64,000 nucleotides of DNA, taken from positions 1 through 64,000 of the IMG/VR virus record IMGVR_UViG_3300026522_000001, one strand, 5' to 3'. The position numbers were made by a program, and so were the translations under genes. The notes beneath the pieces are model-generated. The model was not told where the DNA came from. It searched no databases and saw only the letters and a program-made list of their open reading frames with translations. Positions 7,401-56,427 of this stretch are shown in pieces (positions within the stretch are counted from its first letter, which is position 1; each line of letters opens with the position of its first letter). Origin of the DNA: a virus.

Positions 7401-7484
7401 TCTTGAGTTACATTACTGTAACTATTTATATTATACAACAATAAAATGTAAATGTCAAATCTTACTCAAATAAAATAAAAAAAA

Positions 7485-7509
7485 CTAGGCACATTAAAAA
7501 TGTGCCTAG
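7485..7509 (-). terminator. Bidirectional intrinsic terminator between VR and TR
   Basis: ctaggcaca-ttaaaaa-tgtgcctag hairpin flanked by an A-run and a T-run. Confidence 0.7.
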
Positions 7510-7559
7510 TTTTTTTTGCCCTATTTTATTTTTTTTCTCTTTTTCTCTTTTTATTCTTT

Positions 7560-8798
7560 TTAAGCTATAGCACAAAAACCATAGTCCACATCAACAAGGC
7601 CCACGGCATGATCACACGTAAACGCGAACAATCCACAAGGCGAACCACTCCACGCGCTACCACCAACAAGAGGGGCTTGTAATCCATAAGCTGACCAAAA
7701 GTTATCATTTACTGTTTGTGTTGTTGCATTAGTATCACTAGAGGGTGTAAATAACCAATCGTAGTCTGCATCATTTGCTATAGCTGTAATTAGTGTAGAA
7801 CTACCACCATTAGGATATGTACTTGTTGTAGGAGTCCATGATGCTAAATCATTTACTGTTGGGTCTGTTTGTATTGTATCTACATCCTTAAAGTATGTTT
7901 TACCTGCATAGCATACTGCTCCATCTATATATGACCAAACATTACCCCAAAAATCTTCTATCCCTAATGCTAATGCACTTTCATTTGCTGTTACTGCTGT
8001 TGCACTACCATCCATTCCTTTTACGCTATCTGCGCCACCTGTAGTCCAAACATGACTTCCTTCGCTATATCCATTTGCCACAATAGCTTGTACATCTGTT
8101 GTTGCATATTTTACTAGCATTAACATTACTAAGCTATATTGTGCTTCAAAGGTTAATTCATTCATTCCTTTTGCTTGTAATGTTGTTCTTGCTGTATTTA
8201 ATGCTGTATTTGTTCTAGGTGTTTGTCCACTTAAGCTCTTGAAGTCTCCACTTAGTTTATATTTTGAGATATATCTTTTTTCATAGTGTTTTCCATTTAC
8301 GTAATGCCAAGGGTCAGGCTTGAATCCTGCTTTATATTTTGGTGCTACGATTATCTCAAATTTCTTATCTTCTCTTTGTACCCTTCTATACCAAAATTCA
8401 TTGACTTCAATCATGATGTCACCTTTGATAGAAGCATGAGTACCTTTTCTTATTGTCTCCCATTCTTCGTCTGTATAATCGTCTTTATACACATATGAAG
8501 CTGTCTTTGCTGTATCATTCCATATTCTACAACATTCTCTTGTTTTGAATGGTGCGATGTTCTTGAAGTTATCTATTCCTTCTACTGTATTACTGCTCCT
8601 ATTCCATGTTAATCCTGCCGCATCATACGTTCTTGTTCCTACTGTTTTACTCGGTTCAAACAATACTCCATACATAGGAACTGTTTCATCTAGTGCTGTT
8701 TTTACTGAATCAGGAATAAAACTTGTATCTACGTTTCCAATAAGTAATCCCATATCTTTCTTTTCCTCCATTAAGTAGTTTGTTCTCTCATAGCCCAA
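7560..8798 (-). CDS. DGR target protein: tail fibre/receptor-binding protein with C-type-lectin-like variable C-terminus
   Basis: 412 aa; carries the VR; GGSAW...YGF C-terminal pattern typical of DGR variable proteins; last gene of the fibre cluster. Confidence 0.85.
   Translation of the reverse strand: MGYERTNYLMEEKKDMGLLIGNVDTSFIPDSVKTALDETVPMYGVLFEPSKTVGTRTYDAAGLTWNRSSNTVEGIDNFKNIAPFKTRECCRIWNDTAKTASYVYKDDYTDEEWETIRKGTHASIKGDIMIEVNEFWYRRVQREDKKFEIIVAPKYKAGFKPDPWHYVNGKHYEKRYISKYKLSGDFKSLSGQTPRTNTALNTARTTLQAKGMNELTFEAQYSLVMLMLVKYATTDVQAIVANGYSEGSHVWTTGGADSVKGMDGSATAVTANESALALGIEDFWGNVWSYIDGAVCYAGKTYFKDVDTIQTDPTVNDLASWTPTTSTYPNGGSSTLITAIANDADYDWLFTPSSDTNATTQTVNDNFWSAYGLQAPLVGGSAWSGSPCGLFAFTCDHAVGLVDVDYGFCAIA
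7571..7677 (-). repeat. DGR variable repeat (VR)
   Basis: Covers roughly the last 36-39 codons of ORF 7560-8798 (...PLVGGSAWSGSPCGLFAFTCDHAVGLVDVDYGFC). Confidence 0.92.
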
Positions 8799-9436: not shown

Positions 9437-11186
9437 TTAGCTCCACCTTCTCGAAAGTCTTAAATTCTGATGGGTCTATTTCTTCTGAAACCCTATAATA
9501 GTTTGTAGTCATTTTTGTATAATCTCCTAGGACATATTTATATTCATTATTTGGCTTTGCTACTCCGTCAAATATAATAAATTTTGATTTACTTGCTATT
9601 GTATTGTTTATAGTAAACCTTTTTCCATCACCAGAATCATAATCAAATATATTTTCTGATACACCTTTTGTTACACCGGAAAGTTTTAATACTTCTACGG
9701 GTGGAAATGAGAATGTTGCTGTTTTTTGAACAGAAACATCGAATGTATCACCTTTTTTAGCCCCTAGTTTATTTACTTGACCATAGTTATTATGTTCTGT
9801 TGCAGATAGCAATACCCAATAATTAGCATCATCTTCAAAGCTCTCTGTTGACATATTTTTTTGTATGCACAAATACAATTTATTATCATTTATTACAATA
9901 TCATTAGTATTATATTGTTTTTTTGGTTTCCATTCTTCAACAGAACTTCCACCACCTATATTAGCCCAATTAGATTCTGTAAATGCAACATCAGAATTTG
10001 TTGTCTTACATTTATAGATTTTATTGTTATGCTCAACAATAGCTCCTTTTACATAATAACAACTACTTGTCCATTCAGGTATTTGTGTACATACTAATTC
10101 CCAATTATTTTGCTCTTGTGTAAAATCTGTTCCTGATGTTATATTTGCTTTTGCTCGATATAGTATATTATCATAATATACCATTTCCCCTTTATTATAT
10201 CCTTTTTTTGGTTTCCAGTCAAGTATTTTATTTGAAGAATATAATAAACCTATAATTTCCCAAGAAACATTACCGTCTGTTATAGTAGTGCCAATTTCTT
10301 CTGTTTCTAATGTTGGTGGTGTACTTGCTGTTGTTCCACCTAATACACATCTTATCCATACATCATTAAATCTTACAATATCGTCTTTATTGTATAGGTG
10401 ATTGTTCTGCCTTACAATTGAGTTTTTATTTATGTATTCTACTATTTTTTTATGATAATGTTTTAGTCCATTTGTGTCTAAAAATCCTTGTGACATTCCA
10501 TCCCATACATCTAATGAGGGTACTGTAAAATTATCTGTCCATAATCCTGCACCCTGTATGAGTGAAAAGCTATCTACTTTCATGTTTCTCTTTATGGTTG
10601 GTGTATTATCAGAATCATTACATGAACCACTATTTATAGCAAAGTCTGTTACAGGAAAACTAAAGTCTTTTGTTTTATATCTAGTCTCTAGGTTATCTTC
10701 TATTTCTTTTTTGCCATCAATGAAAACATAAAAGATGTCACCTTTTCTTACTATGCTTATGAAATGATTTTTGCCATCTGCTAGATTTAATGTTTCTGTT
10801 GCGTCAATATATACATTATTCTGTATAGCTAGTCTTAATGGATTGCATAGAAGCATAAATGTTCCTGCTGTTGTTAAGCTATTATTATTTGCTACAGACA
10901 ATAAAACTGTATTTTTACCTGCTGATGCTTCTACATTAAACCAAAAAGATAGTGTAAAGTCATTACTTCCTAGAGAAAAATTTGAAGTGCCTTTAACAGA
11001 AATCTCATAGTCTGTTCCTAGATTAAAGCTACCATCACCAATTATTCCTGCTTTTTCTATAGGTACAGAAGAATTACTTAAAGCACCTGATTTATATATT
11101 CCAAATTCTCCATTTATATTGTTGTCTTTATATATTTCAACTTTTCCATGTTTATATATTGCTCTTAATGCTAATGTATATTCCAA
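9429..11186 (-). CDS. Tail fibre protein: LamG-like domain plus CBM5/12-like repeats
   Basis: 585 aa; FTLSFWFNVEA...FISIVRKGDIFYVFIDG; then at least 3 repeats of W..YNKG..V.Y.N.LYR.K type. Confidence 0.6.
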   Translation of the reverse strand: MEYTLALRAIYKHGKVEIYKDNNINGEFGIYKSGALSNSSVPIEKAGIIGDGSFNLGTDYEISVKGTSNFSLGSNDFTLSFWFNVEASAGKNTVLLSVANNNSLTTAGTFMLLCNPLRLAIQNNVYIDATETLNLADGKNHFISIVRKGDIFYVFIDGKKEIEDNLETRYKTKDFSFPVTDFAINSGSCNDSDNTPTIKRNMKVDSFSLIQGAGLWTDNFTVPSLDVWDGMSQGFLDTNGLKHYHKKIVEYINKNSIVRQNNHLYNKDDIVRFNDVWIRCVLGGTTASTPPTLETEEIGTTITDGNVSWEIIGLLYSSNKILDWKPKKGYNKGEMVYYDNILYRAKANITSGTDFTQEQNNWELVCTQIPEWTSSCYYVKGAIVEHNNKIYKCKTTNSDVAFTESNWANIGGGSSVEEWKPKKQYNTNDIVINDNKLYLCIQKNMSTESFEDDANYWVLLSATEHNNYGQVNKLGAKKGDTFDVSVQKTATFSFPPVEVLKLSGVTKGVSENIFDYDSGDGKRFTINNTIASKSKFIIFDGVAKPNNEYKYVLGDYTKMTTNYYRVSEEIDPSEFKTFEKVELIE

Positions 11187-11218
11187 GTATTAAACCCCCA
11201 TTCACTGTAATCCTTCAA

Positions 11219-11400
11219 TTGACACTCCCCATGCTTAAAGGCAGGGGATTCCTACTTCTTTGACCGTAGCGTATGCGGTGAAACCGCATGAGGTATGGCG
11301 TAGCCATACCTTTTTATGTCTTACACAATCTCCATAGGCTTATTTTATACTGATTCCGCAAGCCCTACGGTACAGTTTTTATATTGTTTAAGCTACTGAA
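11219..11400 (-). ncRNA. Predicted TnpB omega-RNA (reRNA) scaffold
   Basis: GC-rich hairpins in AT-rich DNA just 3' of tnpB (GCGG-tgaaa-CCGC, GGTATGGC-gta-GCCATACC, CCCC..GGGG terminal hairpin); location as known for TnpB omega-RNAs. Confidence 0.6.
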
Positions 11401-12500
11401 AGTAATCTTTTACCCTCATTTAAGATGTTTATGCTTGCATTTATGTCTCTATCATGTGTAGTATGACATTTTGGACATTCCCATTCTCTGATTGACAAAT
11501 CTTTTACTTTTGGATTTCTATATCCACAAGAACTGCAGATTTGAGAACTAGGAAAGAAAGTGTCTATTTTTACTACTTGGCAATTACTTTGCCATTTTGA
11601 TTTATACTCAAGCATAGTAACAAATTTATACCATGAACAATCTTGAATAGACTTAGCTAGTCTATGACTCTTTACCATATTCTTAATCCTTAAACTCTCA
11701 ATAGCTATAACTTGGTTTTCGTCTACTAGCTTTGTTGAAAGTTTTTGAAAGAAATCATTCTTGAAATTGGTAATTTTTTCATATTGAATAGCTACTTTTA
11801 TCCTTCTTTTTTCATGGTTTTTAGATTTAGGCATTGTTCTTGAAAATTTTCTTTGTAACCTTTTTAACTTATTTTCAAGTTTTTTAATATGCTTAATATC
11901 CATATTGTATTTTGTACCATTAGATAAAATAGCAAAATCTTTAATACCTAAGTCAATACCAACTTCATTAGACTTAGAAGTTTTAAAAGTATCTTCTTCC
12001 TCAACAAGAAGTGAAACAAAATACTTATTTGATGGTGTCTTTGACACTGTAGCATTTTTGATTTTTCCAGTAAAAGCTCTACTCTGTTTTATTTTTATAA
12101 GAGTTTTTAATTTAGGCAAGTGTAACTTGCCGTCACTAATAAATATCATTCCAGACTGATTAAGTGTTCTATAAGAATTTTTCCTGTGTTTACTATGAAA
12201 TCTTGGATATTTAGACTGCTTCTTAAAAAATCTCTGAAAAGCAGTATCAAGGTCACGAAGAGATTGCTGTAAAGCAACAGAATCACTCTTTTTTAACCAT
12301 TCATATTCAGAATATCTTTTTAAATCAGTAATATGCCTTGAAAGTTCTTTCATAGAGATAGATTTTTTCTCATTTTCCCAAAGTTCTTTTTTAAGAGCTA
12401 AACAATGATTATACACAAAACGTGCATTTCCAATACATTGGTTAAAAAATTGTTTTTGACTCTCATTGGGATATAACCTAAATTTATATGCTTTTAGCAT
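11388..12500 (-). CDS. tnpB: TnpB (OrfB) RNA-guided endonuclease-type transposase accessory protein
   Basis: 370 aa; MLKAYKFRLYPN start, RuvC-like VGIDLGIKD and IAIESL, zinc ribbon CSSCG...CPKCH, DRDINASINI. Confidence 0.9.
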   Translation of the reverse strand: MLKAYKFRLYPNESQKQFFNQCIGNARFVYNHCLALKKELWENEKKSISMKELSRHITDLKRYSEYEWLKKSDSVALQQSLRDLDTAFQRFFKKQSKYPRFHSKHRKNSYRTLNQSGMIFISDGKLHLPKLKTLIKIKQSRAFTGKIKNATVSKTPSNKYFVSLLVEEEDTFKTSKSNEVGIDLGIKDFAILSNGTKYNMDIKHIKKLENKLKRLQRKFSRTMPKSKNHEKRRIKVAIQYEKITNFKNDFFQKLSTKLVDENQVIAIESLRIKNMVKSHRLAKSIQDCSWYKFVTMLEYKSKWQSNCQVVKIDTFFPSSQICSSCGYRNPKVKDLSIREWECPKCHTTHDRDINASINILNEGKRLLSVA

Positions 12501-12565
12501 TTTGTTTCACCCCCCCCCCTCCAGTTTAACACTCTCCACACCTAAATTTTTGTTATTTTGTTTAT

Positions 12566-12594
12566 ATTATAATACAAAAGTTGGTGCTTGTCAA
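12566..12594 (-). promoter_or_regulatory. Consensus promoter inside the IS left end driving tnpB
   Basis: Minus strand TTGACA (12589-12594)-N17-TATAAT (12566-12571). Confidence 0.6.
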
Positions 12595-12645
12595 TACTTA
12601 ATTTAGTTCTCGCGCCTTATATCCCCAGCCATAAATGACGGGGTT

Positions 12646-15600
12646 TTACAGTGCTTCAAATAATGTGTCTATAAATTCGTTTGTTATTGGTTGAATTTTT
12701 GTGTCATATACTGCAAGTTCAAAATTATTTTTTGAGAAACTTGTGTCATTATTCTGTTTTATGCTTCTATATATTGCACCATCATATAATACAAGCTCTC
12801 CTTCTGTATATGTATTTCCTGATTTCCAATCTTGTATATTAGATAATAATTCCCAATTATCAATATCATCTTTAAATGTATTTGCGCTTGTATGTTCTTT
12901 TATACATCTATATAATATACAATTATATATAATAACATCATTTACAAAATATCTTGTACCTTTTGCCCAGTTATCATGTTTTCTATCAAATCCATCCCAA
13001 TACTGTGGTTCAAATATACTTGTTGATATGTGTGTTGAATTACATACATACAATGCTCCATTATAATATACTAAAGTATTTTTCTCATAAACTTTATTTG
13101 CAGTCCATTTTGAAATATTTAAATCAGATACATCACCAATTAATTGCCAATATCCATCATTAACAGATATTATTAATGGCTTTACTTTATTATATGAACC
13201 ATTAGAAGCATAGCTTCGCTTTTCTCTATTTGATACGAATTTAATATATCTTGTATTTAAAGTAACTTTTAAATTAAAGTTTCCATCAAGCTCATTTTGT
13301 GTTTCATATAATTTTGAGTAATTTGTTCCGTCATCACTTACATAAATATATAAATTACAATATGCCGCGGAATAATTAGCAAAGTAAGCATAAATATTTG
13401 ATACTTGTTTTATACTTCCTAAATCATATACATCTGATGCGTCTATAGTAACATATTCGTATGAGCCTATTGGTGCGTCACCATCATATGTTGTTACAAA
13501 AAATTCATTCTTAGTATTTAATGTAGTTTGTTCAACATCTTCTGAAACACTTGTATGTGCTACTTTACATCTATATAGTTTATTATTAGAAATAACAGTA
13601 TCTCCAACTTTATAATATATTCCTTTTTTATATAATTGTACATTTGAAAATGTCTGTAACCATTCTGCTTCATCCGTTGCAAAATCATTGCCGCTTATAT
13701 GTGTTTCTACTGCTTTATATGGAACATTATTATAATAAACTATTTGGTCTTTTAAATATAATGTTTGCTTTGTCCATGTGCTAGCAATATTTATTGTTCC
13801 AATTAATTGCCAATTAGCTACATCTGCATTGAAACTTGTACTTGTATGTAATTTTACACACCTATACAAATTATTTTCATAACGAATCATATCACCAATT
13901 TCATATTTATGTGATGTTACCCAATCTAATATTGTAGCACTGCATAATTGTACCCAATCATCATTATTATAATCAACATCAAAATTATTTGTGCTTGTAT
14001 GTAATACTTTGCATCTATATAGTAAATTATTATGTAATACTAATTGGTCTTTTTTATACTCTTTGTTTGCAGTCCAGTCCGTTATTTCATCTACTGTAGG
14101 AGAAACTAATTCCCAATCACCATCAGTTTCATAATCTACTTTAAAGTCCGTACTGCTATCATTATTTTTAATGCACTTATATATCTGTGCATTTTTTAAT
14201 ACTAAATCACCAATATAATAATGTGTGTTACTTGCCCAATCGTCTATTTGTGTTTTACTTATTTCCTGCCAATAATCATTTTTATAATCGTGATTAAAAT
14301 CATTATTTGCTTTGTGTGCTAATAAGCATTGATATAGTTTATTATTATGAATAACAATGTCATCTTTTAAATACATTGTTGCCGCAGTCCATGTATTTAA
14401 TGTGCCACCACCAATGGTTTCCCAATCAGCATTATCATTGTCCCAATTAGTTGCGCTCATGTGTGCCGTTTTGCAACGATAAATCGTATTTCCATTTACA
14501 ATACATTGACCTTCATAATAATATTTATTTGCTACCCATGCTTGCAAATTTGCTAGTACGTTGCTTAGTAACGTCCATTTTGAGCGGTCTGTTTCAAAGT
14601 TACTACTAGATGTATGACCCGCTGAATTTATAAAAAATAGATTATCATATTTTATTATTGTTCCAGCCTTGTAATATACTCCGCTTGCCCAATTTGGTAT
14701 ATTAGCGTAAACTATATCCCATTTTGCAATATCTGTTTGAAAATCTGTTGTATTGCTTGTATGTTTTGTATTACAACGATATAGAATATCTTTGTATATT
14801 ACAAATTGACCTACTTGATATGGTTTATTTACTTGCCATTCATTTGCACCACCAACACCACCAACAATTTCCCATGAATTAGTTTCATTATCAAAACTTG
14901 TTGCATCACTCATGTGGTCTGTTTTAGAACGATATATAATACCGTCTACTAAAACGCATTGGCCTGTATAATAATATGTGGATGATTGCCAATTATTTAA
15001 ATATGCTGGTACATTTCCTAGTAATTTCCATTTTGCACGGTCTGTTTCAAAATTACTTGTCGATGTATGAGCACTTACACATTTATACAATAAACCATCT
15101 TTTATTACTACTACATTTAATGGGTAATATTTAGGATATGTCCAGTCATTTACTGAAGCATATAATAAGTTAAAGTTTGCAATATCATCTATAAAATTAG
15201 TGTTCCCACTTGTAAAATTTGCATTTGCTACATAGTATGTTCCTTGATATGTAACAATCTGACCTTTTTGATATTCTGTATTTTTAGCATATTCATCAAC
15301 TAAACCATATGTATCTAATAACTCAAATTTAGTTTTATCAAATGTAGTTGTACTTGTATGTTCTGTAATACATTTATAAATTCTATTATTATAAACTACT
15401 GTAGCATGTTCTTGATATAATACACCATCTTTCCACTCTTGTACATTTGAAAATAACTGTTGAAAATTAATTTTATCTTGTGCAAATGTATTTAATGATG
15501 TATGGTCTATTTTACATCTAAATATCTCATTATTATATAATACAATTTGTCCTCTTGTATAATATGTATTACCTATCCATAAGTCTAATGAGTTACTACT

Positions 15601-16038: not shown

Positions 16039-19000
16039 TTAAATTGTAATAAAGTCTTTATCTTCAAATGCACCACTATTCCACTTATAGCCTTTTGTAT
16101 AATTATTTGTTAATTGTGTATATCTTGATGCAATTCTATAGCCATCTTCCATTGTTACTGGTAACAATACAACTTTTCCATTACTATCTAATCCACATAT
16201 TCTATACATTGTAGGTTGTAATTCATATAAGAACCCATCTTGTCCTGTAACAGTACCTAATGTAGTCTGTGTCCCTATTCCTAATAATACACAATCATCT
16301 GTTGTATATGCTTGTGTAACACTATTTACTGTTTGTGGTAATGTTATTGTATTTCCTGTAACTACGCTTTGTGCAAACTGTTCCAAATCTTGTTGTGTTG
16401 TGAATACACCACCTAATATTGGAGCATTGTATTCCATTTCTTTTTCATAGCTTGCCCAAGAATAAATATTATTCTTTTCATCATATACATGTACAGTCAT
16501 ATGAATATTACTGTATTGTTTTAATTTATCATCACCAATAGCATTACAAAAATCTACCCACCTCATTCTCATGGATTTTTTACTAACACCGTTTGGTTGG
16601 TCGTATGCTACATCTTTTGTAACGTCAAATGTTTTATCATATGCTTCTATAGTAACTGTATTAAATAAATTTACATTAGTAACAACTACTGTTGTAGCAT
16701 CTGTTTGTGATATTATACCATAGTTATCAAATTTATTTCTTGGTATAAAACTATATACTAAATCACCAGTGAAATGTTTCTGTATGTCATAATCATCAAC
16801 ATATTTATATTCTGTTATGCTATCTCTATCCATGCCAAACTTCATATTTGCCATTACTGTTGGTTGTTCACTTCTACGTTTTGTGTATATAGTTTCTATT
16901 TTATCTAATTCAAAATCTTGCTCATCATTTACACTTGCCGTTCTTATTTCGTAATTATCTATTGTGATATTTCCTTCTTTGCAAGCATAATTAAGCCCAT
17001 TTGCGTTCATACCCGTATTTAAGAATGTTACTAAACTTCCTTGTGTATGCTTTTGTGGTAATGTATCAAAAATACCTCTTATAATCCCTGTTAGCTTATA
17101 TGTACCATTTGGCATTAATTGCATTTTATCATATGACATTATTTCGTCATCAATCATTACAATATTTTGACTACTCTTATTATTATATGTATCTGGGTCA
17201 TCTGCAATTCTATCACAAATATTATTAAATTGTGAACTAGAATCTGTACCTATATTTTGTATCTCAAATCCATTAGCATCTTCATCAAATGATAATGAAT
17301 ATTCTGTTGTTAGTTCACCAATCATAGAAAATTGAGAACTTCTTGATGTTACTCTAGTTCTACCATCTAAATATTTGTACATAAACCATGAGCGTGTTTC
17401 TTTATCTGGTCTTGTTGCATAAGCATTGATTGTAGTATTTAAATTCAATGTCATTTCATATGGTAATTCCAAGAAAGATGTTTGTTTACTTTCTGTTGGT
17501 TGCTCTGGTGTATCTTCCCATGATATTATACCATGATAATCATAATCAACTTTACCAAATCCAAATACATCTTCTACCGCCGTTATGTTTATAGTTTCAT
17601 CAGTTAATGAACCATAATCTATATCTGTTACCCTAAATGCCTGTTTTGTAATTCCATATGGTTCCCAGTTTATTCTTATTGGGTCTCCCAAAGTTACATT
17701 ATATCCTGCGCGATTACATTTAAATGTTATTGATGCTAATGGGTAACCTGCACTTAATAATGATGTTTGTGCTAATGTTCTTGCATTTTCAGCAGTTGTA
17801 AAATATTGTCCATCAGTATCTTGTTCAGTATAATTATGTGTTATAAATGTATTCGCAGTATCTTGTATAATTACCGTGCTTGTATCATATTTATTATTTG
17901 CATCTGTAAAATTAACATTTATTGCGCTTACTGTTTCAGACCAATCAAGTCTTGTAAACTCCATATTCTCACAATTAGATGTGTTAAATTCTATAACATT
18001 ATCTACATCGTAATCATTACGAATTAGCTTAAATGTTAGCATACCTGTTGTTGGTGAGTCAAAACATACACCATTTATATGTTGCAATATCTTATTTATA
18101 TATGAACTTGCTATATCTACTTGGTTAAATACACATGATACTCCTAATCCTTCTAGTTCGCATATTGCACCTAGCTTTATTAAGCTATCAACATCTATTC
18201 TAGTATCTCCATAATCGCAACCCCAATAATTATTCTTTAGTATCTCATATATAGCATCAGCAGGATTTTCATCATCGCCTAGTCGTCCTAAATGATAACG
18301 ACCATTTTCTACTAATTTATCAAAATTAGATGATACTCTATTAAACTCTGCACTCTTTGCATTTGGATAGTTATCTTTTAATGCTTTCCATTTATCTTTG
18401 ATATCAGATAGTGCACTATTGTAATTAACCATTTCTGCATCTGTGTCTGCCGATATAGTTCCTATATATGTATTTAGCGTATTATCACAGGCATCTTTGT
18501 AGTCTTTTATTGCATCCTTTACTGCTTGGTTTTGCTCCGATATATATTTATTAATATAATCGTAAGAATTAGTTATATCATTTCTATATTTCTGTATTAT
18601 TCTATTTTTATGATTTGTCCATAACTTATTTGGATAATTTACTATTTCAAACCACATTTCTGGTATATTTGGTTGCTTTCCTATATATGCTTTTGGTATT
18701 ACACATGTAAAATACATTGGATATACTGGTGTTAATCCTTTTAAATCATCCTCTACTTGTGCATTATCTGTCATTTGCTTAACCATCCAGCTATCTCTAC
18801 CCTGTTCTGTAGTACCAAAATATAGCCTAATATCTCCTACAAATCCACCGCCCTCATCTGGGCCACCAAACATATCCTCATCGTCTATATGAGCTACTAT
18901 ACCTTTTGGATTATCTACTTTCCATGCTACATGGTCGTTATTATCCCATACACCTTTTTCTGTAGATTCTTCAACCTTATCATCATACACATTCATGTAT

Positions 19001-19617
19001 ATTTTTTTTATTCCTATATTATCTCCTGTCCAACATATTATATGTTGCCAACCTAAATAATATTTAAACCCTTTTTGTATAGTTGTTTTTAGTAAATGTT
19101 TATTTATTAATGACATTAATATCCATACAAAGAAATGTGAAACAGCTTTCATCATTGCCGCACGTTTACCACCAGAATCTATAGTATTACCTTCACCTGG
19201 GCTAGAAGTAACACCACCACCACCACTTGTTGTAACATGTTGACCTGGGTGTACAATAACTTTATCTGGTATAGATATGCTAACTATCAAATCTATTAAC
19301 GTCCCCAATATCATAGGCCATACGTTTAATTTACTATGTGCTCCATATTCTTCTGTATATATTTTATAATCATAATCTCCATAATAACTAACTAGTGGAG
19401 TTTTAATCATTCCACGTCCAATTACTACAGGGATTGCACTACCTATTGCATTAACATTATCATATGTAAACTTTGATGGCTCTTGGATGCTACTTCCATC
19501 ATTACCAAATCTTCTCCTCAATAGCCATAGTAGCGTTGTTGATATACCCCAACCAAGATATGCTGAAAATTGGTTTTTATTTTCATTATTTTCATTATTT
19601 TTTGCGCGCTTACCCAA
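16039..19617 (-). CDS. Host-specificity / central tail hub protein (lambda J / GTA g15-like)
   Basis: 1192 aa; follows a DUF2163-like gene as in GTA-type tails; N-terminal SAIPVVIGRGMIKTPLV motif. Confidence 0.6.
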   Translation of the reverse strand: MGKRAKNNENNENKNQFSAYLGWGISTTLLWLLRRRFGNDGSSIQEPSKFTYDNVNAIGSAIPVVIGRGMIKTPLVSYYGDYDYKIYTEEYGAHSKLNVWPMILGTLIDLIVSISIPDKVIVHPGQHVTTSGGGGVTSSPGEGNTIDSGGKRAAMMKAVSHFFVWILMSLINKHLLKTTIQKGFKYYLGWQHIICWTGDNIGIKKIYMNVYDDKVEESTEKGVWDNNDHVAWKVDNPKGIVAHIDDEDMFGGPDEGGGFVGDIRLYFGTTEQGRDSWMVKQMTDNAQVEDDLKGLTPVYPMYFTCVIPKAYIGKQPNIPEMWFEIVNYPNKLWTNHKNRIIQKYRNDITNSYDYINKYISEQNQAVKDAIKDYKDACDNTLNTYIGTISADTDAEMVNYNSALSDIKDKWKALKDNYPNAKSAEFNRVSSNFDKLVENGRYHLGRLGDDENPADAIYEILKNNYWGCDYGDTRIDVDSLIKLGAICELEGLGVSCVFNQVDIASSYINKILQHINGVCFDSPTTGMLTFKLIRNDYDVDNVIEFNTSNCENMEFTRLDWSETVSAINVNFTDANNKYDTSTVIIQDTANTFITHNYTEQDTDGQYFTTAENARTLAQTSLLSAGYPLASITFKCNRAGYNVTLGDPIRINWEPYGITKQAFRVTDIDYGSLTDETINITAVEDVFGFGKVDYDYHGIISWEDTPEQPTESKQTSFLELPYEMTLNLNTTINAYATRPDKETRSWFMYKYLDGRTRVTSRSSQFSMIGELTTEYSLSFDEDANGFEIQNIGTDSSSQFNNICDRIADDPDTYNNKSSQNIVMIDDEIMSYDKMQLMPNGTYKLTGIIRGIFDTLPQKHTQGSLVTFLNTGMNANGLNYACKEGNITIDNYEIRTASVNDEQDFELDKIETIYTKRRSEQPTVMANMKFGMDRDSITEYKYVDDYDIQKHFTGDLVYSFIPRNKFDNYGIISQTDATTVVVTNVNLFNTVTIEAYDKTFDVTKDVAYDQPNGVSKKSMRMRWVDFCNAIGDDKLKQYSNIHMTVHVYDEKNNIYSWASYEKEMEYNAPILGGVFTTQQDLEQFAQSVVTGNTITLPQTVNSVTQAYTTDDCVLLGIGTQTTLGTVTGQDGFLYELQPTMYRICGLDSNGKVVLLPVTMEDGYRIASRYTQLTNNYTKGYKWNSGAFEDKDFITI

Positions 19618-19692
19618 TTATATTGTCACCTCTATAAATAAAAAAAAAATTCCTTACACATATTATATCATGTATAAGGAAAATTATCAATA

Positions 19693-20583
19693 TTAACCTA
19701 AGTTCATTGAATATATCTTTCTATCTGTATCTCGTGTAATTACATCTGTCATTACCCAATATGCTGGCGGATTTTGTGTGCTTCTTCTAGTATATACATT
19801 ATATGCTGGAATATAAGGCACTCCACTAAAATTATCTGTATTATGAAATTTTCTAGCACATTTTGTAAATAGATTACTGCATCCAGCATAAGCATAAAAT
19901 GTATTTTGTTTATCATTATCATTTATTGGATATTTTAGATATATTGTATTACCTTCATGCCTTTTTATTTGTCTATAGCAATTTCCCATTTTTATAAAGC
20001 CATCAGTAAACCACCCATTTTCAACATCTTCTAAATTCTTTGATTGTATAGTTAGTCCACTATGACTATCTACATAACATTTTAATTTCCATTCATCCAT
20101 ATTTAACATGCATTTATTATCATATATACAATTTATACAATAATAGCTTAATTTACCTTTTGGTACATTTCTTGACATTACATTTTCTATTGTAATAGTT
20201 AATTCTACTTCACTATCTATAAAATGCGCTTGCGTTACTGTTCCATCTAGTATTTTTATATAGTCTTGCTGACCTTCGCCATGCATACGATATATTTTTA
20301 ATTCAACACCGTCTTCTTCTGGTGGCGCTCCTTGATATAATAACCCTATTTGTGATGTTCTATTCATAGTTACTATACAAGTTTCTTTATTTGTAGTACC
20401 TAGTTTTAGACTATCTCCCCTATGAATATATTCTGCCGTACATGCATATATAACACCATCTAAATTAATAGTTTGTGAAAAATTTGAGCTTGTGTAGGCA
20501 TATTCAACACCATTATAGGTAAATATGTATATTTCTACAGGGTTACCATCGTCAACCGATAATTCACTAGTATTATAACTCAT
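19693..20583 (-). CDS. DUF2163 / phage BR0599-family tail protein (GTA g13-like)
   Basis: 296 aa; PVEIYIFTYNGVEYAYTSS...DGVIY N-terminus and C-terminal GCSNLFTKCARKFHNTDNFSGVPYIP (C..C..F.N..NF.G.P.IP) signature. Confidence 0.7.
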   Translation of the reverse strand: MSYNTSELSVDDGNPVEIYIFTYNGVEYAYTSSNFSQTINLDGVIYACTAEYIHRGDSLKLGTTNKETCIVTMNRTSQIGLLYQGAPPEEDGVELKIYRMHGEGQQDYIKILDGTVTQAHFIDSEVELTITIENVMSRNVPKGKLSYYCINCIYDNKCMLNMDEWKLKCYVDSHSGLTIQSKNLEDVENGWFTDGFIKMGNCYRQIKRHEGNTIYLKYPINDNDKQNTFYAYAGCSNLFTKCARKFHNTDNFSGVPYIPAYNVYTRRSTQNPPAYWVMTDVITRDTDRKIYSMNLG

Positions 20584-21842
20584 ACGTCCACTTCCTTAAA
20601 TGATACTGTTGTTGTAGCTACACAATCTGTCTCATAATTAAATTGTATCTCGTCGCTATCAAATCTTACTAGATTAAAATATGATATCATCATTATATTA
20701 TCTAATGGTATAGTTTCTTTTACTGTATCTGATAATAATATTTTACCTACTTTTATCTCCCCATATGTAGGGTCATGCCTTTTATCAGTAGCATATCCAA
20801 ATATTTTAAATATATGTGCTTGAAAATCTTTTGTCAATACTACTATATATTTCTTTCTTGTTACTGCTGAATAATAATCATACATGCCATTAAACTCTGT
20901 TATGATATAGTTTTGACCACCAACAATATCTTCATATGGCTCTATATCATTTACCCATGTTGGACAATAAAATGCTTTATATCTACCGCTAACATTTCTA
21001 AAAAATCTTTTCATATCAAATATCATTGATTTATCTAAAAGGTTTATATCCCATGTTTGTGTATCATAATAATAATTACTTTTCATATCATATTGGAATA
21101 TACCTGTATTATTATCAAGTTTATTTACATTTTTATTTATTTTTAAATTTACAGATTCGTCGCCTACCCATGTAGGTGTGAATAAAAATACTTCTCTATC
21201 ATTAAATGTTTGTGGTAGATTAAACATATTAAAATTTTCTGACGTACCCTCATAAGGTAATACTTTTGCTGGCAAACTTACGTTTCCTACTGCATTTACT
21301 GCTTCAAAATTTAATACAGTATGTGTTCCTCTAGCAAATACATAGTTTACATCTGACGATGGTTGCGTACATGTATTTATTAATGGATAAACAAATGTAG
21401 TTCCTGCTCTAAATGGTTTTGATACAGGGTCTTTTAATTCTATTATACCAACATTATTTTTATCATCTATTCTATAGTGCCTTACTTTTCTTACCATATT
21501 CTTACTTCTGCCCAATGGGTCATCTTCATAAAATAATTCTACATAATCACAATTTTCAAAATTATATAATGAGTTTACTGGTATTTTTATTATTTTACCA
21601 CCTAATACATCCTCTACTACTGGTGTAGCATTAAACCATAATGGTATATACTGTGTTCTATTTTGTTTTTGTCTTAATAATGCTCTTATCCATTGTGCTT
21701 GAAATACATCCATAGCATCGTAGTCAAAACTAAATTTACGTCTAGGATATTGCCTAGTTTTTAGTCTTTGCTCTTTACCGTCATAACTTGTTATTATACT
21801 TGTATTATATTCATATGTTTCTGTTATTTTTGTATCTGCCAA
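20580..21842 (-). CDS. Distal tail protein-like (GTA g12 / DUF2460-like), moderate call
   Basis: 420 aa; 4-nt overlap with the DUF2163 gene; N-terminal SYDGKEQRLKTRQYPRRKFSFDY resembles the family pattern. Confidence 0.5.
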   Translation of the reverse strand: MADTKITETYEYNTSIITSYDGKEQRLKTRQYPRRKFSFDYDAMDVFQAQWIRALLRQKQNRTQYIPLWFNATPVVEDVLGGKIIKIPVNSLYNFENCDYVELFYEDDPLGRSKNMVRKVRHYRIDDKNNVGIIELKDPVSKPFRAGTTFVYPLINTCTQPSSDVNYVFARGTHTVLNFEAVNAVGNVSLPAKVLPYEGTSENFNMFNLPQTFNDREVFLFTPTWVGDESVNLKINKNVNKLDNNTGIFQYDMKSNYYYDTQTWDINLLDKSMIFDMKRFFRNVSGRYKAFYCPTWVNDIEPYEDIVGGQNYIITEFNGMYDYYSAVTRKKYIVVLTKDFQAHIFKIFGYATDKRHDPTYGEIKVGKILLSDTVKETIPLDNIMMISYFNLVRFDSDEIQFNYETDCVATTTVSFKEVDV

Positions 21843-30982: not shown

Positions 30983-31900
30983 TCACTCCAATTTTATACA
31001 AAAATATGAGTTGTTACTTCTCATTTGCTTTGTATCAAATGCAATATATTGTTCATTATTCCATGTCAATATACGTTCAGCATCTAAGTCTCTAGTACCA
31101 GAAATCCAATATACACCACGAAGAATACCATTTACATCTATTGGGTCATTTGTTTGTAACATTACTGGTATCAATAAGAAGTTATTCTGCTCAACTTGGC
31201 CATCTTCACGATAATTAGGAATTAGTTTCTCATTCTTAGCATTATATGGAAATACTGTACCTACTGTGTTATATCCATAGCTTGTGTTAAAATCAAATTT
31301 TCTCCATGTTCCATCTGCTCTACGCAAATATCCGCTACCACCATTAGGAAATAGGAATGACCCTTGTGTATTATTAGGCCATACACCGCCCTGTGATGTT
31401 CCATTACCTGCAATATACATTGGATATGGATATTGACGTTCACTTGCTATTGGATTTATAAATCCAATATACATACTCTCGTATACGATTGACATACGAG
31501 TTACTATTATTGCTCTATATGTATCTACAAATATCCAATACACAAACCTTTCATCTTTAGCCGTTGTATATGCTGGTTGTAATCCTATCTCTCCTTGATG
31601 AGATATTTTTAACCATTGTTGTATAGAACCAGGTTGTTCCCATAACATTAAATATTCATCATACCCTGCACATGAATCTAAATACATTCTTGCATTTGTG
31701 TTAGTATCTACTAATGCCTGTAAGTATATTTTATCATTGCCATCTCCGATGCCTTCCCATATGCAGTGCATTAGTCTATCATTACCATTATATGTATGTT
31801 TTTGTACTAAATGTTGTGTCCAACCTACCTTAACTAACATTTCATCTAGTTTTTCTATTACATCATATATTGAAGATGCTTCACCACTTACATAAGCCAA
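30983..31900 (-). CDS. Structural protein (paralog family; TTG start)
   Basis: 305 aa; SSIYDVIEKLDEMLVKVGWT N-terminal motif shared with the 457- and 1013-aa proteins. Confidence 0.55.
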   Translation of the reverse strand: MAYVSGEASSIYDVIEKLDEMLVKVGWTQHLVQKHTYNGNDRLMHCIWEGIGDGNDKIYLQALVDTNTNARMYLDSCAGYDEYLMLWEQPGSIQQWLKISHQGEIGLQPAYTTAKDERFVYWIFVDTYRAIIVTRMSIVYESMYIGFINPIASERQYPYPMYIAGNGTSQGGVWPNNTQGSFLFPNGGSGYLRRADGTWRKFDFNTSYGYNTVGTVFPYNAKNEKLIPNYREDGQVEQNNFLLIPVMLQTNDPIDVNGILRGVYWISGTRDLDAERILTWNNEQYIAFDTKQMRSNNSYFCIKLE

Positions 31901-31904
31901 TTTA

Positions 31905-32027
31905 TCACCCCATCTGCTTCATTAATTCATTCATGTCTAATTTTGAAAAATCAACATGATTCATTTGTTCCATCATTTCATTCGTCATATCCCTTGTTAT
32001 ACCCACCTGTGTCTCTACACTATTCAT
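31905..32027 (-). CDS. Possible 40-aa ORF translationally coupled to the next gene
   Basis: MNSVETQVGITRDMTNEMMEQMNHVDFSKLDMNELMKQMG; its end (ATGGGGTGA) supplies the SD for the TTG start at 31900; its own SD is weak. Confidence 0.3.
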   Translation of the reverse strand: MNSVETQVGITRDMTNEMMEQMNHVDFSKLDMNELMKQMG

Positions 32028-32061
32028 GGTGAGTATTGCACTATATGTTTCTATTTTTTTT

Positions 32062-32148
32062 TCAACAATTCATAAGAATTGTCTTGTAAATATTCTTTGA
32101 TTGCTTTTTACGCTCATCTGTCAATTTTTCAATAAACTTCTCATCCAT
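32062..32148 (-). CDS. Possible 28-aa ORF
   Basis: GGAGG SD 8 nt before ATG; consensus promoter about 35 nt upstream; MDEKFIEKLTDERKKQSKNIYKTILMNC. Confidence 0.4.
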   Translation of the reverse strand: MDEKFIEKLTDERKKQSKNIYKTILMNC

Positions 32149-32185
32149 ATTAATTTCCTCCGTGCTATCAAATTTCTATATATTC

Positions 32186-32214
32186 ATTATAGCATTTATA
32201 CAGCATTATGTCAA
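32186..32214 (-). promoter_or_regulatory. Consensus promoter restarting transcription of the baseplate/fibre genes
   Basis: Minus strand TTGACA (32209-32214)-N17-TATAAT (32186-32191); abuts the orphan omega-RNA-like end. Confidence 0.6.
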
Positions 32215-32218
32215 TAAA

Positions 32219-32371
32219 TTGACACTCCACATTTCTAAAAGCAGGAGATTCTTGGTTCAACAACCATTGCGCTTTCCGCCAAAGCATCTGGCGTCTTACA
32301 CGATTTCCCCAAGCGTGAATTCCCATGCAAAACATATAGCTAAATTATTTTAAAAAATAGAAATTTGACAA
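32219..32371 (-). ncRNA. Orphan (tnpB-less) omega-RNA-like IS605-family right-end copy with upstream promoter-like box
   Basis: Closely similar to 58446-58571 and shares the terminal hairpin and GTCTTACA box with the tnpB-linked copy; TTGTCA-N17-ATAATT at 32343-32371. Confidence 0.55.
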
Positions 32372-32386
32372 TGAAGTATAACTTGA

Positions 32387-32590
32387 CTATGTGTTTATAG
32401 TACCACATGACTTTTCATATGCCAATAGATTTTTATGAAAAATTTTATTTTTTCTTGAAGAAATTTCCAAAGATTTGAACAGTTCTTGTTTTGTGTCACA
32501 ATTAGGTAAACATATTAATATTTCCATAACTTGTTCATATGTCATTCTCATAGAAACTTCTCTACTATTACAATCCATATATGTAAACAT
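32387..32590 (-). CDS. Hypothetical 67-aa protein (possible small HTH)
   Basis: GAGGTG SD 8 nt upstream of ATG; no recognised motif. Confidence 0.45.
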   Translation of the reverse strand: MFTYMDCNSREVSMRMTYEQVMEILICLPNCDTKQELFKSLEISSRKNKIFHKNLLAYEKSCGTINT

Positions 32591-32689
32591 GAATTATAAC
32601 ACCTCAATATGTGTACTTAAATACAATATGCCATAAATAATATTAACTATTTAAGACATATTTTATATTATTACTTACATTTAGCCGTA

Positions 32690-32965
32690 AAATAAAATCG
32701 TACAAAACAGGGTAGGCGAAATCCTGTCACGATTTTAGATGTTACGGAGCACCTACATCTACAAATTTCTTATACCGTTTCTCTTGCAAGCAATGGACTA
32801 CAACAGCTTGGGAAATCCGTTACCTTATTAGAATCCAATCAGGTAGGAGTGCCTGAATCTCTTGGAACAGACAGTCCTACCTGATTGGAATTTTATTATC
32901 TAAATTAAGCAGGTTTCGTAAAGTCACTTCTTTTATACATAGGATAACACCTCGTTTATTGTCTT
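32690..32965 (-). ncRNA. Stand-alone structured RNA of about 270 nt (unknown class) with 11-codon mini-ORF at its 5' end
   Basis: Consensus promoter 32971-32999. SD plus ATG for MYKRSDFTKPA (32905-32940). 15-bp perfect hairpin 32834-32848/32875-32889. Further stems CAAGC/GCTTG and AGATGT/ACATCT. Nested terminal hairpin 32694-32736 followed by a U-rich tract. Confidence 0.55.
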
Positions 32966-32970
32966 TTTAT

Positions 32971-32999
32971 ATTATATCATTTTTGTTCTAATTTGTCAA
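32971..32999 (-). promoter_or_regulatory. Consensus promoter of the structured RNA locus
   Basis: Minus strand TTGACA (32994-32999)-N17-TATAAT (32971-32976). Confidence 0.6.
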
Positions 33000-33006
33000 A
33001 TAAAAA

Positions 33007-33047
33007 ATAGGTGCAAATAAGGAATTTATGCCCCCGTTTGCACCTAT
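33007..33047 (-). terminator. Intrinsic terminator ending the tape-measure transcription unit
   Basis: 11-bp stem ataggtgcaaa/tttgcacctat, followed by TTTTTT on the minus strand. Confidence 0.65.
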
Positions 33048-33321
33048 TATAAAATCTGCTAACTTACCTTTTAGTATTAAAGTACTGATAATACTTTAAT
33101 TTGGTATAGTTTATTATTTATAGAGTCTAACTCTGTTGATATATCTATATTATTATTTTGTATTACTGACTTTAATTTTGAAATATAGTTTATTATAGTA
33201 TCAGTATTCTGTTTACTATCTTCTGCCAACACAATATTTATATAATTTTTCATATACTAAATTATACTCTTATTAAATTCTTCTACAATTTCATCTTCTG
33301 TAATAACCTCACCTTCCTATA

Positions 33322-36300
33322 TTAATAGCTACCAACAATCTTATTAGTAAACTTAGCACTACCTCTTGTAAAGTCAAGCATAATTCTCTGACCTCTTGGT
33401 GAACGCATAAAGTGTGCTATGGCTTCTTCTTGGTTGCTTACTAATGCTACATTCATATTTGTTGTACTACTTACATTTGTTCCTAAAGTACTAGCAAATG
33501 TACTCATTCCTCTTGCAGTCTCTTGTGCCGCAACTTCACCACCATCTGCAAATTTAGGAACATTTATAATATTTGGTATTCTGCTAAAGTTACCATTATT
33601 TACAGCATTTAAGAATCCTGTTCCGTATTTTCTTACGGCGCTTGCTTTAACAACAAATTCTCCATTACTCAACATCGCAGGTATACTGTCACTTGTTGAT
33701 GTTCCTTCACCTTTAACATTTCCACCTGTAGAGAATTTTCTTATTAGTCCTCCATCCTTATGCCCTTGTTCTTTAGTTCCTTGCCCTGAAGGTATATTTG
33801 CAGCTGCTGTTGCTATAACGTCTAGTGCTTCCTTTGCACTTTTAGCTGAATCACTAAGTTCATCTAAACTAGTCTTTACTTCTGTTGAACTTTGCTGAAC
33901 TGCACTAGATAGCTGTTGCAAAGATGTATTTGTTTGTGATATTGTTGTTTCTATTGAAGCATTATTTGTAGCTTGCTGTGCTTGTGCAGAAGCATTTGCT
34001 ACTGTTGGAGTAGATAATGCTGATTGTGATTTCTTCAATTCACTATATGTTTTATTTTGGTCTAATACTCTAAAGTATCCACCAGTACCATCTTGCATCC
34101 ATGTATTTTTTAAGTCATAATTCTTTTTGCTATTATCCATCTCAAAATAATGACCAGTTTCGGGATTTTTAAGGCCTAATATATCTGAGGAATCTCTATA
34201 TGTTTGTAGACCCTGTATTCCAGTACCATCTTCTGATGCTATAATATGTAGCTGTGACCTGATAGGTGAAAAATAGTCTGTTAAACCATTTTTATCTACA
34301 TTTTTATATTGATTAAGTGTATATATTTGCCCTGGTGTTACTTTAGACGCAAGATTTTCTGTTGTTGGTTGTCTACCAGACTCGTCTTTTACTGGAAACC
34401 ATTGTTGCATAAGCCCTTCAACAAGTCTCTTTGCAAAGAACTTTTGCATTGTCTTTAGGAAATCTACAACCATATTTTGTAGAGCTTCACCTAATGAATG
34501 AGCTTCATTTACCCCGTCTGTAAGGAATGTTACAAGCCCATCTTCTAGTGCTTGTCTTGCAGTTTCATGCGTTTCTTCTAATAAAGTTTTTATATGACTT
34601 AACATACCAGAAATTCTCTCTTTATTAGCTATCTCTTGCATCTGACTCATAGAAGCTGTCTGTCTTTCCATCTGTAAAGCTATATCAGCATTTAACTCAT
34701 CTATTCTTTTTGTTACATTAGCCACTTCTTGAGAGCCTTGTGGAAGTCTATCTCTTTCTGCCTGTTTCTTGCTTAATTCTTCTCTTAATCCTGCTATTTG
34801 TATCTGCCTACTCATATAGTCATTATTCATAGCGGCATATTGTTGTTTATATGCTTTATTTAATTCGGCATTTTTATAGGCTTTCATCTCCTTATTTGCT
34901 TCTTCTCTTTGAAGGTTTGTCATAGGTATATTTTCTAATACACTATTCATGTAGTCATACCTATCAGAAATTGCTTGTGTCATACCATTTAATATACTAT
35001 ATAATTTTTCTTGTGCACTTATTAGCTTTTTCTTTATTTCTTCTGCTTTTTCAGAATTACCCATAGCTGTAAACTCAGCATATTGCTTTACTAGAGCTTC
35101 CATCTGATAAGCAGGTGTTTGTTTAGCAAGATTTATTTTTGTTCTAAGTGTATCTAATTCTTTATTGTACTCTGATAATTCAACATCTGATTTTTTCTTT
35201 GCAACAAAATATGCTTGTTCTTTTATTTTTAGGTCTGATTTTTTCTGATTCCAAATCTTCTGTTCTGCAAGTAAATCATCTCTTGTAATGTTCTTACCTG
35301 CTGTTTTATCAGACATATCAAAGCCCTTATTATACTTAATAAGCATTTCATAGAACTTTTGATTTTCTTTACTAAATTCTTTTCTTACTTTATCATAGTC
35401 TGATTTAGCGTTTTGTGTATTTCTTATATTAGCATATTTACCAATATCAGAACGCTTTAAACCTTCTCTTAAAGAGTCTTGTAAGCCTTTTCTCCAATAA
35501 TAACTATCAAACTGTTTCTTATTCTCATTGTTGTTTCTATACGCCCACTCTTTATCATTAGCTTCTTTCCAACTATTATAATAAGTCTTATATGACTCGT
35601 TCATCATATCATTACCACGAAGTGCTAATAATCTTTGTGTATCTGCATGTAAGTCATTTAATACATTTAGCTTATCAACTATTCCTTGGTTCTTAATATA
35701 ATTACTATCATTTAACTTCTTATATGCACTTTGTAGTTCTTCTTTTGATGAAAGTCTATAATAATAATCACTAAGCATATTTCTACTTTCTTCCATTGAC
35801 TGCCAAGAGTCAACAATATTTTTATTATTACCTGTGTTATTAAATCTCCAAAGTGCATCATTAGCAGGACGTTCTTTATCATTTATTTCTCTATATTTTG
35901 GATTTGATTTATCCCATCCTATTGAATCCATTTCTGTTTTATATTTTTTATATTCAGAAAATAAATAATTAAATTCACTTACTAAATCTTTTGCATTATT
36001 TTGTGACTCAAATACTTCCATCTTGCTTGTAAGATTTTCATAAGCTTTCTTTAATTCACTAAACCCATTAGGATTAGATAGGAAATCATATATTTTTTGT
36101 CTCTTATCGAGTGTATCTCTTATTAAGGATATACTTTCAGGTTTATTTATATAACCTATATATTTTTCTGCTAATTCACCAAAATCTGTATCATAGTTTT
36201 TATATTTTCCATAAGCAACTTCATATGCACGATACTTAGCTGTTGTTTCAAGTCTACTTATATTAAAGTCAAGCTGTTTTTCTAGTGCATCTGTTACAAC

Positions 36301-56115: not shown

Positions 56116-56338
56116 ATTATTACAAGTTTTTTCCTGTTTCCCCACCAAGCAGAATGGAAAACTTGAAAAACCATCTAACACACCCACATATTACTATGTA
56201 TATATCCATATGTAATGTTAGTCCCTAAGCCAGCTTACATTTTACTAGACGCATTTGATAAAGATTTATAAATCATATATGTATAACTTTTTTCAATTAA
56301 TTGCTGTGTGCGTCTATTCCCTTACCGCTTATATATTT

Positions 56339-56367
56339 ATTATACCACAGGTTAAGCCCTGTGTCAA
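56339..56367 (-). promoter_or_regulatory. Consensus promoter upstream of the tRNA array
   Basis: Minus strand TTGACA (56362-56367)-N17-TATAAT (56339-56344). Confidence 0.6.
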
Positions 56368-56427
56368 TACCTTATTTTTTTTTATTCTCCAAACTTGAAA
56401 TTCTGTTCTCCCCGATGACATGTACTT

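Follow-up and report, generated by a model that had tools for sequence, protein, structure and literature searches.

The 64,000-nt stretch of viral DNA analysed here (IMG/VR record IMGVR_UViG_3300026522_000001, positions 1 to 64,000; hereafter the window) carries near 32 kb a short unit that looks like the right end and omega-RNA region of an IS200/IS605 element, lies downstream of a promoter-like sequence and has no tnpB gene of its own. This locus raises the question of whether the unit, termed unit A, is a guide-RNA gene that serves a phage TnpB in trans, or the remnant of a mobile element that is being lost. The features of the locus (locus A) are given below in the direction of reading.

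32344 to 32371 (read 32371 to 32344), minus strand: promoter-like TTGTCA-N16-AATAAT, 10 of 12 consensus matches
32328 to 32341, minus strand: phage sequence 5′ of a deletion junction, TTTTG/CATGGG (sister-allele alignment)
32219 to 32327, minus strand: unit A, what is kept of an IS200/IS605 right end with its omega-RNA scaffold (BLAST, covariance model R1)
32199 to 32218, minus strand: right-end flank, the would-be guide TTTATTGACATAATGCTGTA (sequence)
32186 to 32214, minus strand: sigma-70-type consensus promoter TTGACA-N17-TATAAT, 12 of 12 matches, with TG

Unit A spans the 3′ arm of hairpin 1, hairpins 2 to 5 and a terminal ...GGAGTGTCAA, and is one of three minus-strand copies in the window that end ...GG(G/T)GGAGTGTCAA, at 11219, 32219 and 58446. 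This three-copy repeat is real and far beyond chance: GGGGAGTGTCAA with at most two mismatches occurs five times against 1.56 expected, BLAST aligns 32219-32327 with 58446-58552 at 82.6% identity over 109 nt (E ~1e-22), 32217-32271 is 72.7% identical to 11217-11271, and the plus-strand box GTCTTACAyrATyTCC is found in all three window copies. Unit A, the 58.4 kb copy (unit B) and the tnpB-linked 11 kb copy have in common the box GGAAATCGTGTAAGAC and their final ~50 nt; in the 11 kb copy both fall within 11219-11387, the RNA region 3′ of tnpB, as the initial annotation had proposed. That annotation also described unit A as similar to unit B along its whole length, which is correct for 32219-32327; the homology ends at 32327, and 32328-32371, past the deletion junction, is ordinary phage sequence. 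A promoter-like site is indeed located upstream, with a spacing of N16 and a -10 box of AATAAT in place of the TTGTCA-N17-ATAATT first described.

The right-end motifs of IS608-type elements are present in unit A, including a subterminal hairpin, a short spacer, TCAA, and GAAT 5′ of the hairpin foot, and the end reads ...AAGAATCTCCTGCTTTTAGAAATGTGGAGTGTCAA up to the boundary, although only 6 of 9 pairs are left in the subterminal hairpin. The would-be guide overlaps the -35 box of the next promoter (32186-32214), which serves downstream small ORFs and a 305-aa structural gene. Searches with four TnpB proteins (tblastn) revealed no tnpB remnant adjoining the 32 kb or 58 kb units at E<1. A candidate tnpB fragment 3′ of unit A (32073-32189 against 11828-11946, 68.6% nucleotide identity) was rejected, as it has no protein-level match and consists of AT- and lysine-rich coding sequence. 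Rfam, which contains no family for this RNA, returned only tRNAs at the gathering threshold and, in E-value mode, nothing meaningful at unit B or the 11 kb copy, and BLAST of 31000-33400 against the INPHARED phages gave no match.

The scaffold family and its RNA structure

A 23-mer specific to units A and B, GGGAATTCACGCTTGGGGAAATC, retrieved a set of IMG/VR contigs including L002, in which a 121-nt scaffold directly follows the tnpB stop codon within a tnpA+tnpB IS605 element. The scaffold is likewise tnpB-linked, 3′ of the gene, in contigs L107 and L109, the latter carrying two tandem omega-RNA/right-end units after one tnpB (10898-11017 and 11125-11244), a natural two-scaffold arrangement. 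In a genome scan, members of the Selenomonadaceae, among them Selenomonas, Mitsuokella and Anaerovibrio, also proved to carry the scaffold; in most cases it lies 3′ of a tnpB gene with 73-90% identity to the L002 gene. The subfamily is abundant in genomes of this bacterial family, to which the host of the phage probably belongs. Since the same scaffold is found directly 3′ of tnpB elsewhere, units A and B are IS200/IS605 right ends, the segment from which the 3′ portion of the TnpB omega-RNA is encoded in complete elements. The initial assignment of unit A as a tnpB-less right end with an omega-RNA-type scaffold is thus well founded. The left ends of the family (n = 9) share a hairpin, TAAAAC-CCnnnnTTTAnnnnTGGGGATATAAGG, located 10-12 nt downstream of (T)TTAT, which we infer to be both the target and the TAM. 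Forms of the scaffold in PATEs (ORF-less, non-autonomous IS200/IS605 derivatives) were also identified in viral contig L093 and in Selenomonadaceae genomes (L140, L144, L153 and L154).

The secondary structure of the family consists of five hairpins (RNAalifold). In a 12-sequence model alignment, itself fitted to the model, 92% of cells are paired compared with 30-48% in slid controls, 11 pairs are changed on both sides, and none of 500 shuffles reaches the observed values. The covariance model R1 scores 149 bits for L001 and L002, 145 bits for a third orphan of the phage that lies outside the window (unit C), 141.7 bits for unit B, 126-149 bits for the units 3′ of tnpB in L002, L107 and L109, 114 bits for L129 and 107 bits for unit A (32219-32341), while the scaffold that belongs to the 11 kb tnpB reaches only 42 bits on this orphan model. 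Thermodynamic folding fails to separate the copies, with z-scores of -0.5 to -0.9 throughout and -0.74 for unit A. The covariance-model comparison that had been proposed as a check supports the scaffold structure for the family, yet places unit A below the intact copies (107 versus 142-149 bits).

By count of model pairs, unit A keeps 27 of 32 and unit B 30 of 32; the first tnpB-adjacent unit of L109 keeps 25 of 32, so that unit A falls inside the tnpB-adjacent range. Hairpins 2 and 4 and the conserved box are intact in unit A. The damage is found in the guide-proximal hairpin 5, in which three pairs are broken and 6 of 9 remain, compared with 9 of 9 in both L129 and unit B. Relative to the family consensus and L129, hairpin 5 of unit A carries the changes CCCC to CTCC, GGGG to GTGG and GGCA to GAAA, the first of which gives a wobble in register and the other two mismatches. 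The terminal hairpin had been credited with a compensatory change (CTCC...GGAG); GGAG is invariant in all copies and the proposed pairing needs a register shift, leaving a damaged hairpin. A second proposed case, an internal hairpin reading CGCC/GGCG in unit A and CACC/GGTG in unit B, does belong to a helix with covariation across the family, one of its pairs occurring as GC, GU and AU, but in unit A 2 nt are inserted in this helix and one of its pairs is broken. With its lower model score, its five lost pairs and its damaged guide-proximal hairpin, unit A does not bear out the claim that structure rather than sequence has been conserved.

A PATE deletion series at locus A

An exact-protein match to the 67-aa ORF upstream of unit A identified five further contigs, the flanks of which are 96-100% identical to the window. 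The alleles at locus A are as follows.

L129 and L132: promoter TTGTCA..AATAAT; tRNA-Leu(CAA); small hairpin; TTTAT; left-end hairpin TAAAACCACACCCTTTAGGGCTGGGGATA; hairpin 1; remaining scaffold; ...CAA, then TTTATTGACATAATGC
Window and L131: exactly 172 bp absent (tRNA, left end, 5′ arm of hairpin 1); junction TTTTG/CATGGG at 32328/32327
L133 and L134: the 172-bp deletion and a second deletion, from GGGGAAATCGTG to ACGGAGGAAAT

L129 and L132 carry an entire mini-element without an ORF, a PATE of ~165 bp, with a left end of TTTAT-N10-TAAAACCACACCCTTTAGGGCTGGGGATA; in L129 the left-end hairpin and hairpin 1 are separated by 9 nt with no protein-coding gene, and the tRNA-Leu(CAA) is called by ARAGORN. 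The left-end motif is absent from the window copy of locus A and occurs within the window only at the 11 kb IS. The second deletion in L133 and L134 takes out hairpins 3 to 5, the would-be guide and the 12/12 downstream promoter, which L129 and L132 keep, while the downstream genes are retained. Locus A is thus a deletion series of a PATE, and sequence is still being lost in relatives. The ancestral state, represented by L129 and L132, is an ORF-less PATE with both ends, and the element at this locus never needed a tnpB there. An empty-site target, TTTAT followed by TTTATTGACATAATGC, occurs in no recovered allele.

Two features ascribed to unit A are accounted for by this series. What was described as the unit's own promoter, taking the place of tnpB, is the promoter of the tRNA gene, driving tRNA-Leu(CAA) in the sister alleles and fused to the scaffold through the 172-bp deletion. 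The A-U pair in hairpin 1, considered as a compensatory replacement of G-C, is an artefact of the junction and was discarded: the deletion placed unrelated phage sequence where the 5′ arm had been, and 32328-32341 pairs by chance with the leftover arm, mimicking hairpin 1. Decay of MITE copies, which the initial annotation had named as the outcome that would speak against it, largely describes unit A, with near-identical phages carrying progressively deleted versions.

The reading that best fits these data, to which we give a probability of about 0.8, is that unit A is the immobile, eroded right end of a PATE. On this reading, the PATE entered 3′ of a TTTAT target in non-coding DNA, with a phage tRNA-Leu gene on one side and the promoter for the downstream structural operon on the other. 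The ancestors of the window later underwent the 172-bp deletion, through which the tRNA was lost together with the left end and the 5′ arm of hairpin 1, and the tRNA promoter became joined to the scaffold. As the left end is gone, the remnant should not be excisable by TnpA; no tnpA was identified in the 81 kb of contig examined. Unit A is probably transcribed, either from the fused promoter or by read-through, as a leader into the next promoter, given that no terminator intervenes. Such an RNA would consist of an omega-RNA-like 3′ scaffold followed by UUUAUUGACAUAAUGC, and its loading onto one of the three phage TnpB proteins is conceivable, the closest being the 11 kb TnpB, which is ~50% identical to the cognate type. 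Sister phages continue to delete parts of the locus, and in unit A the guide-proximal hairpin is damaged; both observations indicate that nothing maintains unit A and that it is selfish DNA being lost. As a counterpoint, all three orphan ends of the phage keep the omega-RNA part and two are located directly behind promoters, a pattern that could reflect selection for guide RNAs instead of chance. In addition, the unit itself is only 78% identical between the window and L129, compared with 96-99% for the flanks; this higher divergence suggests allele replacement or recombination between element copies, beyond simple neutral decay, and is the main reason that homing-type activity is still considered.

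A different origin, in which unit A is the relic of a full tnpB-carrying IS at this exact site that lost tnpB by a clean deletion and then evolved a new promoter, is very unlikely. In a related phage, L123 (neighbour protein 52% identical), the homologous structural gene is preceded by a tnpB element, and unit C on the same contig as the window still keeps 45 nt of tnpB, both of which would fit this history. Against it, the left-end hairpin in L129 and L132 abuts hairpin 1, with no room for a gene, the promoter is older than the deletion and serves a tRNA, no protein-level remnant of tnpB is found, and the L123 element is of another subfamily at another position. A search for relatives through the 305-aa neighbour protein gave none in IMG/VR and only 52%-identity relatives in the JGI metagenomes; since their tnpB element belongs to a different subfamily and a non-identical position, it is uninformative on the ancestry of unit A.

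That unit A is a cis-regulatory leader (a 5′ UTR or attenuator), unrelated to TnpB and exapted for the downstream promoter and operon, is hardly credible. The unit does lie directly upstream of the 12/12 promoter, with its flank overlapping the -35 box, but both unit and promoter are deleted in L133 and L134 while the downstream genes remain, and the locus has no terminator, no Rfam match and an unremarkable fold z-score (-0.74). The eroded PATE remains the preferred explanation for unit A.

Other orphan ends, TnpB proteins and candidate guides

Beyond the window, the same phage is represented by an 87,637-bp ENA contig (L004); the tnpB genes and the orphan end listed under L004 lie just past window position 1. 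The elements that bear on a possible use of the orphan scaffolds in trans are the following.

11219 to 12659, minus strand: complete tnpB-only IS200/IS605 element (Pfam, PDB match, left-end motif, covariance model)
12660 to 12663: TAM TTAT of this element
12501 to 12659: its left end, with hairpin and promoter
11388 to 12500: its tnpB
11219 to 11387: its right end and omega-RNA 3′ region
58572 to 58600, minus strand: consensus promoter TTGACA-N17-TATAAT upstream of unit B
58446 to 58566, minus strand: unit B, from the subfamily of unit A, an orphan right end with its omega-RNA scaffold, nearly intact, 141.7 bits
58273 to 58355, minus strand: tRNA-Leu(CAA), downstream of unit B at a distance of 90 nt from its end
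L004, 11785 to 12891 and 13754 to 14995: two more tnpB genes (368 and 413 aa) with differing right ends
L004, 15503 to 15669: unit C, a third orphan right end, outside the window

The 370-aa product of the 11 kb ORF (11388-12500) contains HTH_OrfB_IS605, OrfB_IS605 and Cas12f1-like TNB domains (Pfam) and matches ISDra2 TnpB in the PDB (E=1e-82), with the residues aligned to D191, E278 and D361 all present. No empty site was recovered for this element, the only other contig found also bearing an IS end. The sequence TTGAAG starts both its left end (12646-12663) and the flank past its right end (11199-11218), and the left end provides an in-frame stop to the upstream 1101-aa fibre-like ORF (...LFEAL* versus a predicted ...LFEGLQ*). 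A resemblance between the unit B promoter and the left-end promoter of the 11 kb element (18 nt, E=0.8) was discarded as homology, as several consensus promoters of the phage have similar -10 contexts.

A conserved non-coding region of ~560 nt, extending from the left-end hairpin to the start of the 413-aa tnpB, is common to L004 (13190-13750) and the tnpB element of the related phage L123 (1760-2320); its layout is IStron-like, and the long 5′ region of this gene gave no Rfam match to a group I intron. Unit C keeps the last 45 nt of the tnpB ORF and differs by 1 nt from the L002 element, indicating that truncation of such elements occurs in this phage. The phage thus has at least three tnpB genes along with three orphan right ends, whereas the initial annotation had envisaged a guide set for a single TnpB. 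The L002 TnpB, representing the cognate type, is 49.6% identical to the 11 kb TnpB and 32% identical to the second phage TnpB, and is unrelated to the third.

Locus B is also polymorphic. In L137 the unit lacks hairpin 2 and is followed by a degenerate half-unit downstream, and L136 has only a ~65-nt degenerate unit ending TTGAT directly 5′ of GCGGATAGGGCTATGC, which is the guide B target with one mismatch. As a candidate TAM this TTGAT was rejected, being one base off the (T)TTAT deduced from nine left-end flanks. The consensus promoter and the tRNA-Leu are kept in all three alleles (window, L136 and L137), and the persistence of the promoter without an intact unit indicates that it belongs to the tRNA-Leu transcription unit.

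The flanks that would serve as guides are TTTATTGACATAATGC for unit A, GCGGATAGGACTATGC for unit B and AAAAGGAGTAATATAT for unit C. A search of 81 kb of the contig with these and the 11 kb guide returned only the guides themselves, and no TAM-flanked target was found in the contig or the recovered sister alleles; guide A matches only its own flank, preceded by GTCAA.

These data allow an evaluation of the proposal that units A, B and C are stand-alone guide-RNA genes. Phage promoters would drive their expression, a phage TnpB would take up the RNAs in trans, and each RNA would direct cutting of the genomes of sibling or competitor phages in which the flank lies beside a TTTAT TAM and the insertion is missing; linked markers would thereby be driven through non-restorative homing or exclusion. 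We consider this unlikely. It draws on the 11 kb TnpB, which is ISDra2-like with an intact RuvC D-E-D triad, on the 73-85% conservation of the guide-proximal 45 nt between the orphans and the RNA belonging to that TnpB, on the promoters upstream of units A and B, on the presence/absence polymorphism in the population, on the near-match to guide B retained in L136 after TTGAT, and on the trans use of PATE omega-RNAs proposed in the literature. The promoters, however, are those of tRNA genes and are there with or without an intact unit, hairpin 5 of unit A is damaged and its hairpin 1 lost, the units are deleted in sister phages, and no guide has a TAM-flanked target in the contig or the recovered sister alleles. 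Identity between the cognate TnpB of L002 and its nearest counterpart in the phage is, moreover, only 49.6%, and the scaffolds differ (42 bits for the 11 kb copy). Activity of this kind is more plausible for the intact 58.4 kb copy than for unit A. An extended version, in which a few omega-RNA modules lacking tnpB (B and C intact, A decaying) in tRNA and promoter regions would act with the intact TnpB protein or proteins as a multi-guide system for trans homing or exclusion against sibling phages, the mosaicism of loci A and B being the footprint of this drive, is speculative and rather improbable.

Several other features of the window and contig were recorded. A diversity-generating retroelement occupies 6011-8798 on the minus strand. 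Its reverse transcriptase gene (RVT_1) spans 6011-7093 and its template repeat 7283-7389, and the ORF at 7560-8798 contains the variable repeat (7571-7677) in its 3′ end; all template/variable repeat differences fall on template adenines. At 56116-56400 (minus strand), just downstream of a DUF2828/DUF7788 (vWA-type) gene, a perfect TTGACA-N17-TATAAT (~56366 to 56338) precedes ~200 nt of unannotated sequence and then a tRNA-Arg, and this region may encode a small RNA. The region upstream of the unit B promoter (58650-58764) and an intergenic stretch at 3.7 kb (3626-3741) form an inverted repeat of ~115 nt with 66-73% complementarity. Clusters of AT-rich direct and inverted repeats with CGAACGTAGTGAGTATAT-type cores at 1880-2060 and 58930-59150 may be origin- or iteron-like or related to packaging. 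On L004, fragments of NrdD (anaerobic ribonucleotide reductase) are interleaved with HNH_3/NUMOD4 endonuclease genes at 17266-21698, suggesting invasion by introns or homing endonucleases. The window also contains a PhoH-like gene at 61812-62495 and, by precomputed annotation, an ORF matching the Pfam Tad3 family (anti-Thoeris-type) at 62677-63228.

Relation to known systems and significance

Meers et al. (2023, PMC10055086) described ORF-less PATEs in Geobacillus stearothermophilus and haloarchaea, including PATEs with omega-RNAs that would depend on a TnpB acting in trans, and proposed such trans use. The ancestral allele in L129 and L132 resembles these elements in its TTTAT target, its left-end subterminal hairpin, its right-end hairpin ending TCAA, its lack of an ORF, its size of ~165 bp and its omega-RNA scaffold, which would need TnpB in trans. 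The window copy differs in having lost its left end; it is a solo right end and no longer a PATE, fused to a tRNA promoter by deletion, and it resides in a phage genome beside the position of a tRNA gene. With the omega-RNA (reRNA) of the ISDra2 and ISGst2 TnpB proteins the scaffold shares its right-end position, an end at the transposon boundary, a flank in the place of the guide, a multi-hairpin scaffold and a conserved guide-proximal hairpin, and the (T)TTAT deduced as the TAM of the family matches that of ISGst2 TnpB2 (TTTAT). Unlike these RNAs, unit A has no overlapping or adjacent tnpB, its scaffold starts past the position of the tnpB stop, and its guide-proximal hairpin is weakened.

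The location of the would-be guide over a -35 box in a phage setting recalls TldR proteins, nuclease-dead TnpB-like repressors with promoter-targeting guides, some of which are phage-encoded. The catalytic triad of the nearest TnpB is intact, however, and the guide matches only its own flank, without a TAM and with no separate target promoter elsewhere. A parallel can also be drawn with the free-standing homing endonucleases and localized marker exclusion of T-even phages, in that trans-active units would bias the inheritance of adjacent markers and the units show presence and absence among siblings in the manner of HEG islands; recognition would here be RNA-guided. A 2026 review (PMC13565253) considers non-restorative homing of TnpB elements into co-infecting phages.

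If the plain reading is true, locus A provides a natural time series of a phage shedding a mini-IS200/IS605 element, from a full PATE, through a form with no left end, to near-complete loss. It also serves as a warning that promoter-bearing, omega-RNA-like orphans can arise through deletion and not selection. Should units B and C be loaded in trans by a phage TnpB, they would constitute a natural non-CRISPR arrangement of one nuclease with many guides and would give phages a way to compete by RNA-guided means, and the allelic series from the sister phages provides the exact substrates for testing trans loading.
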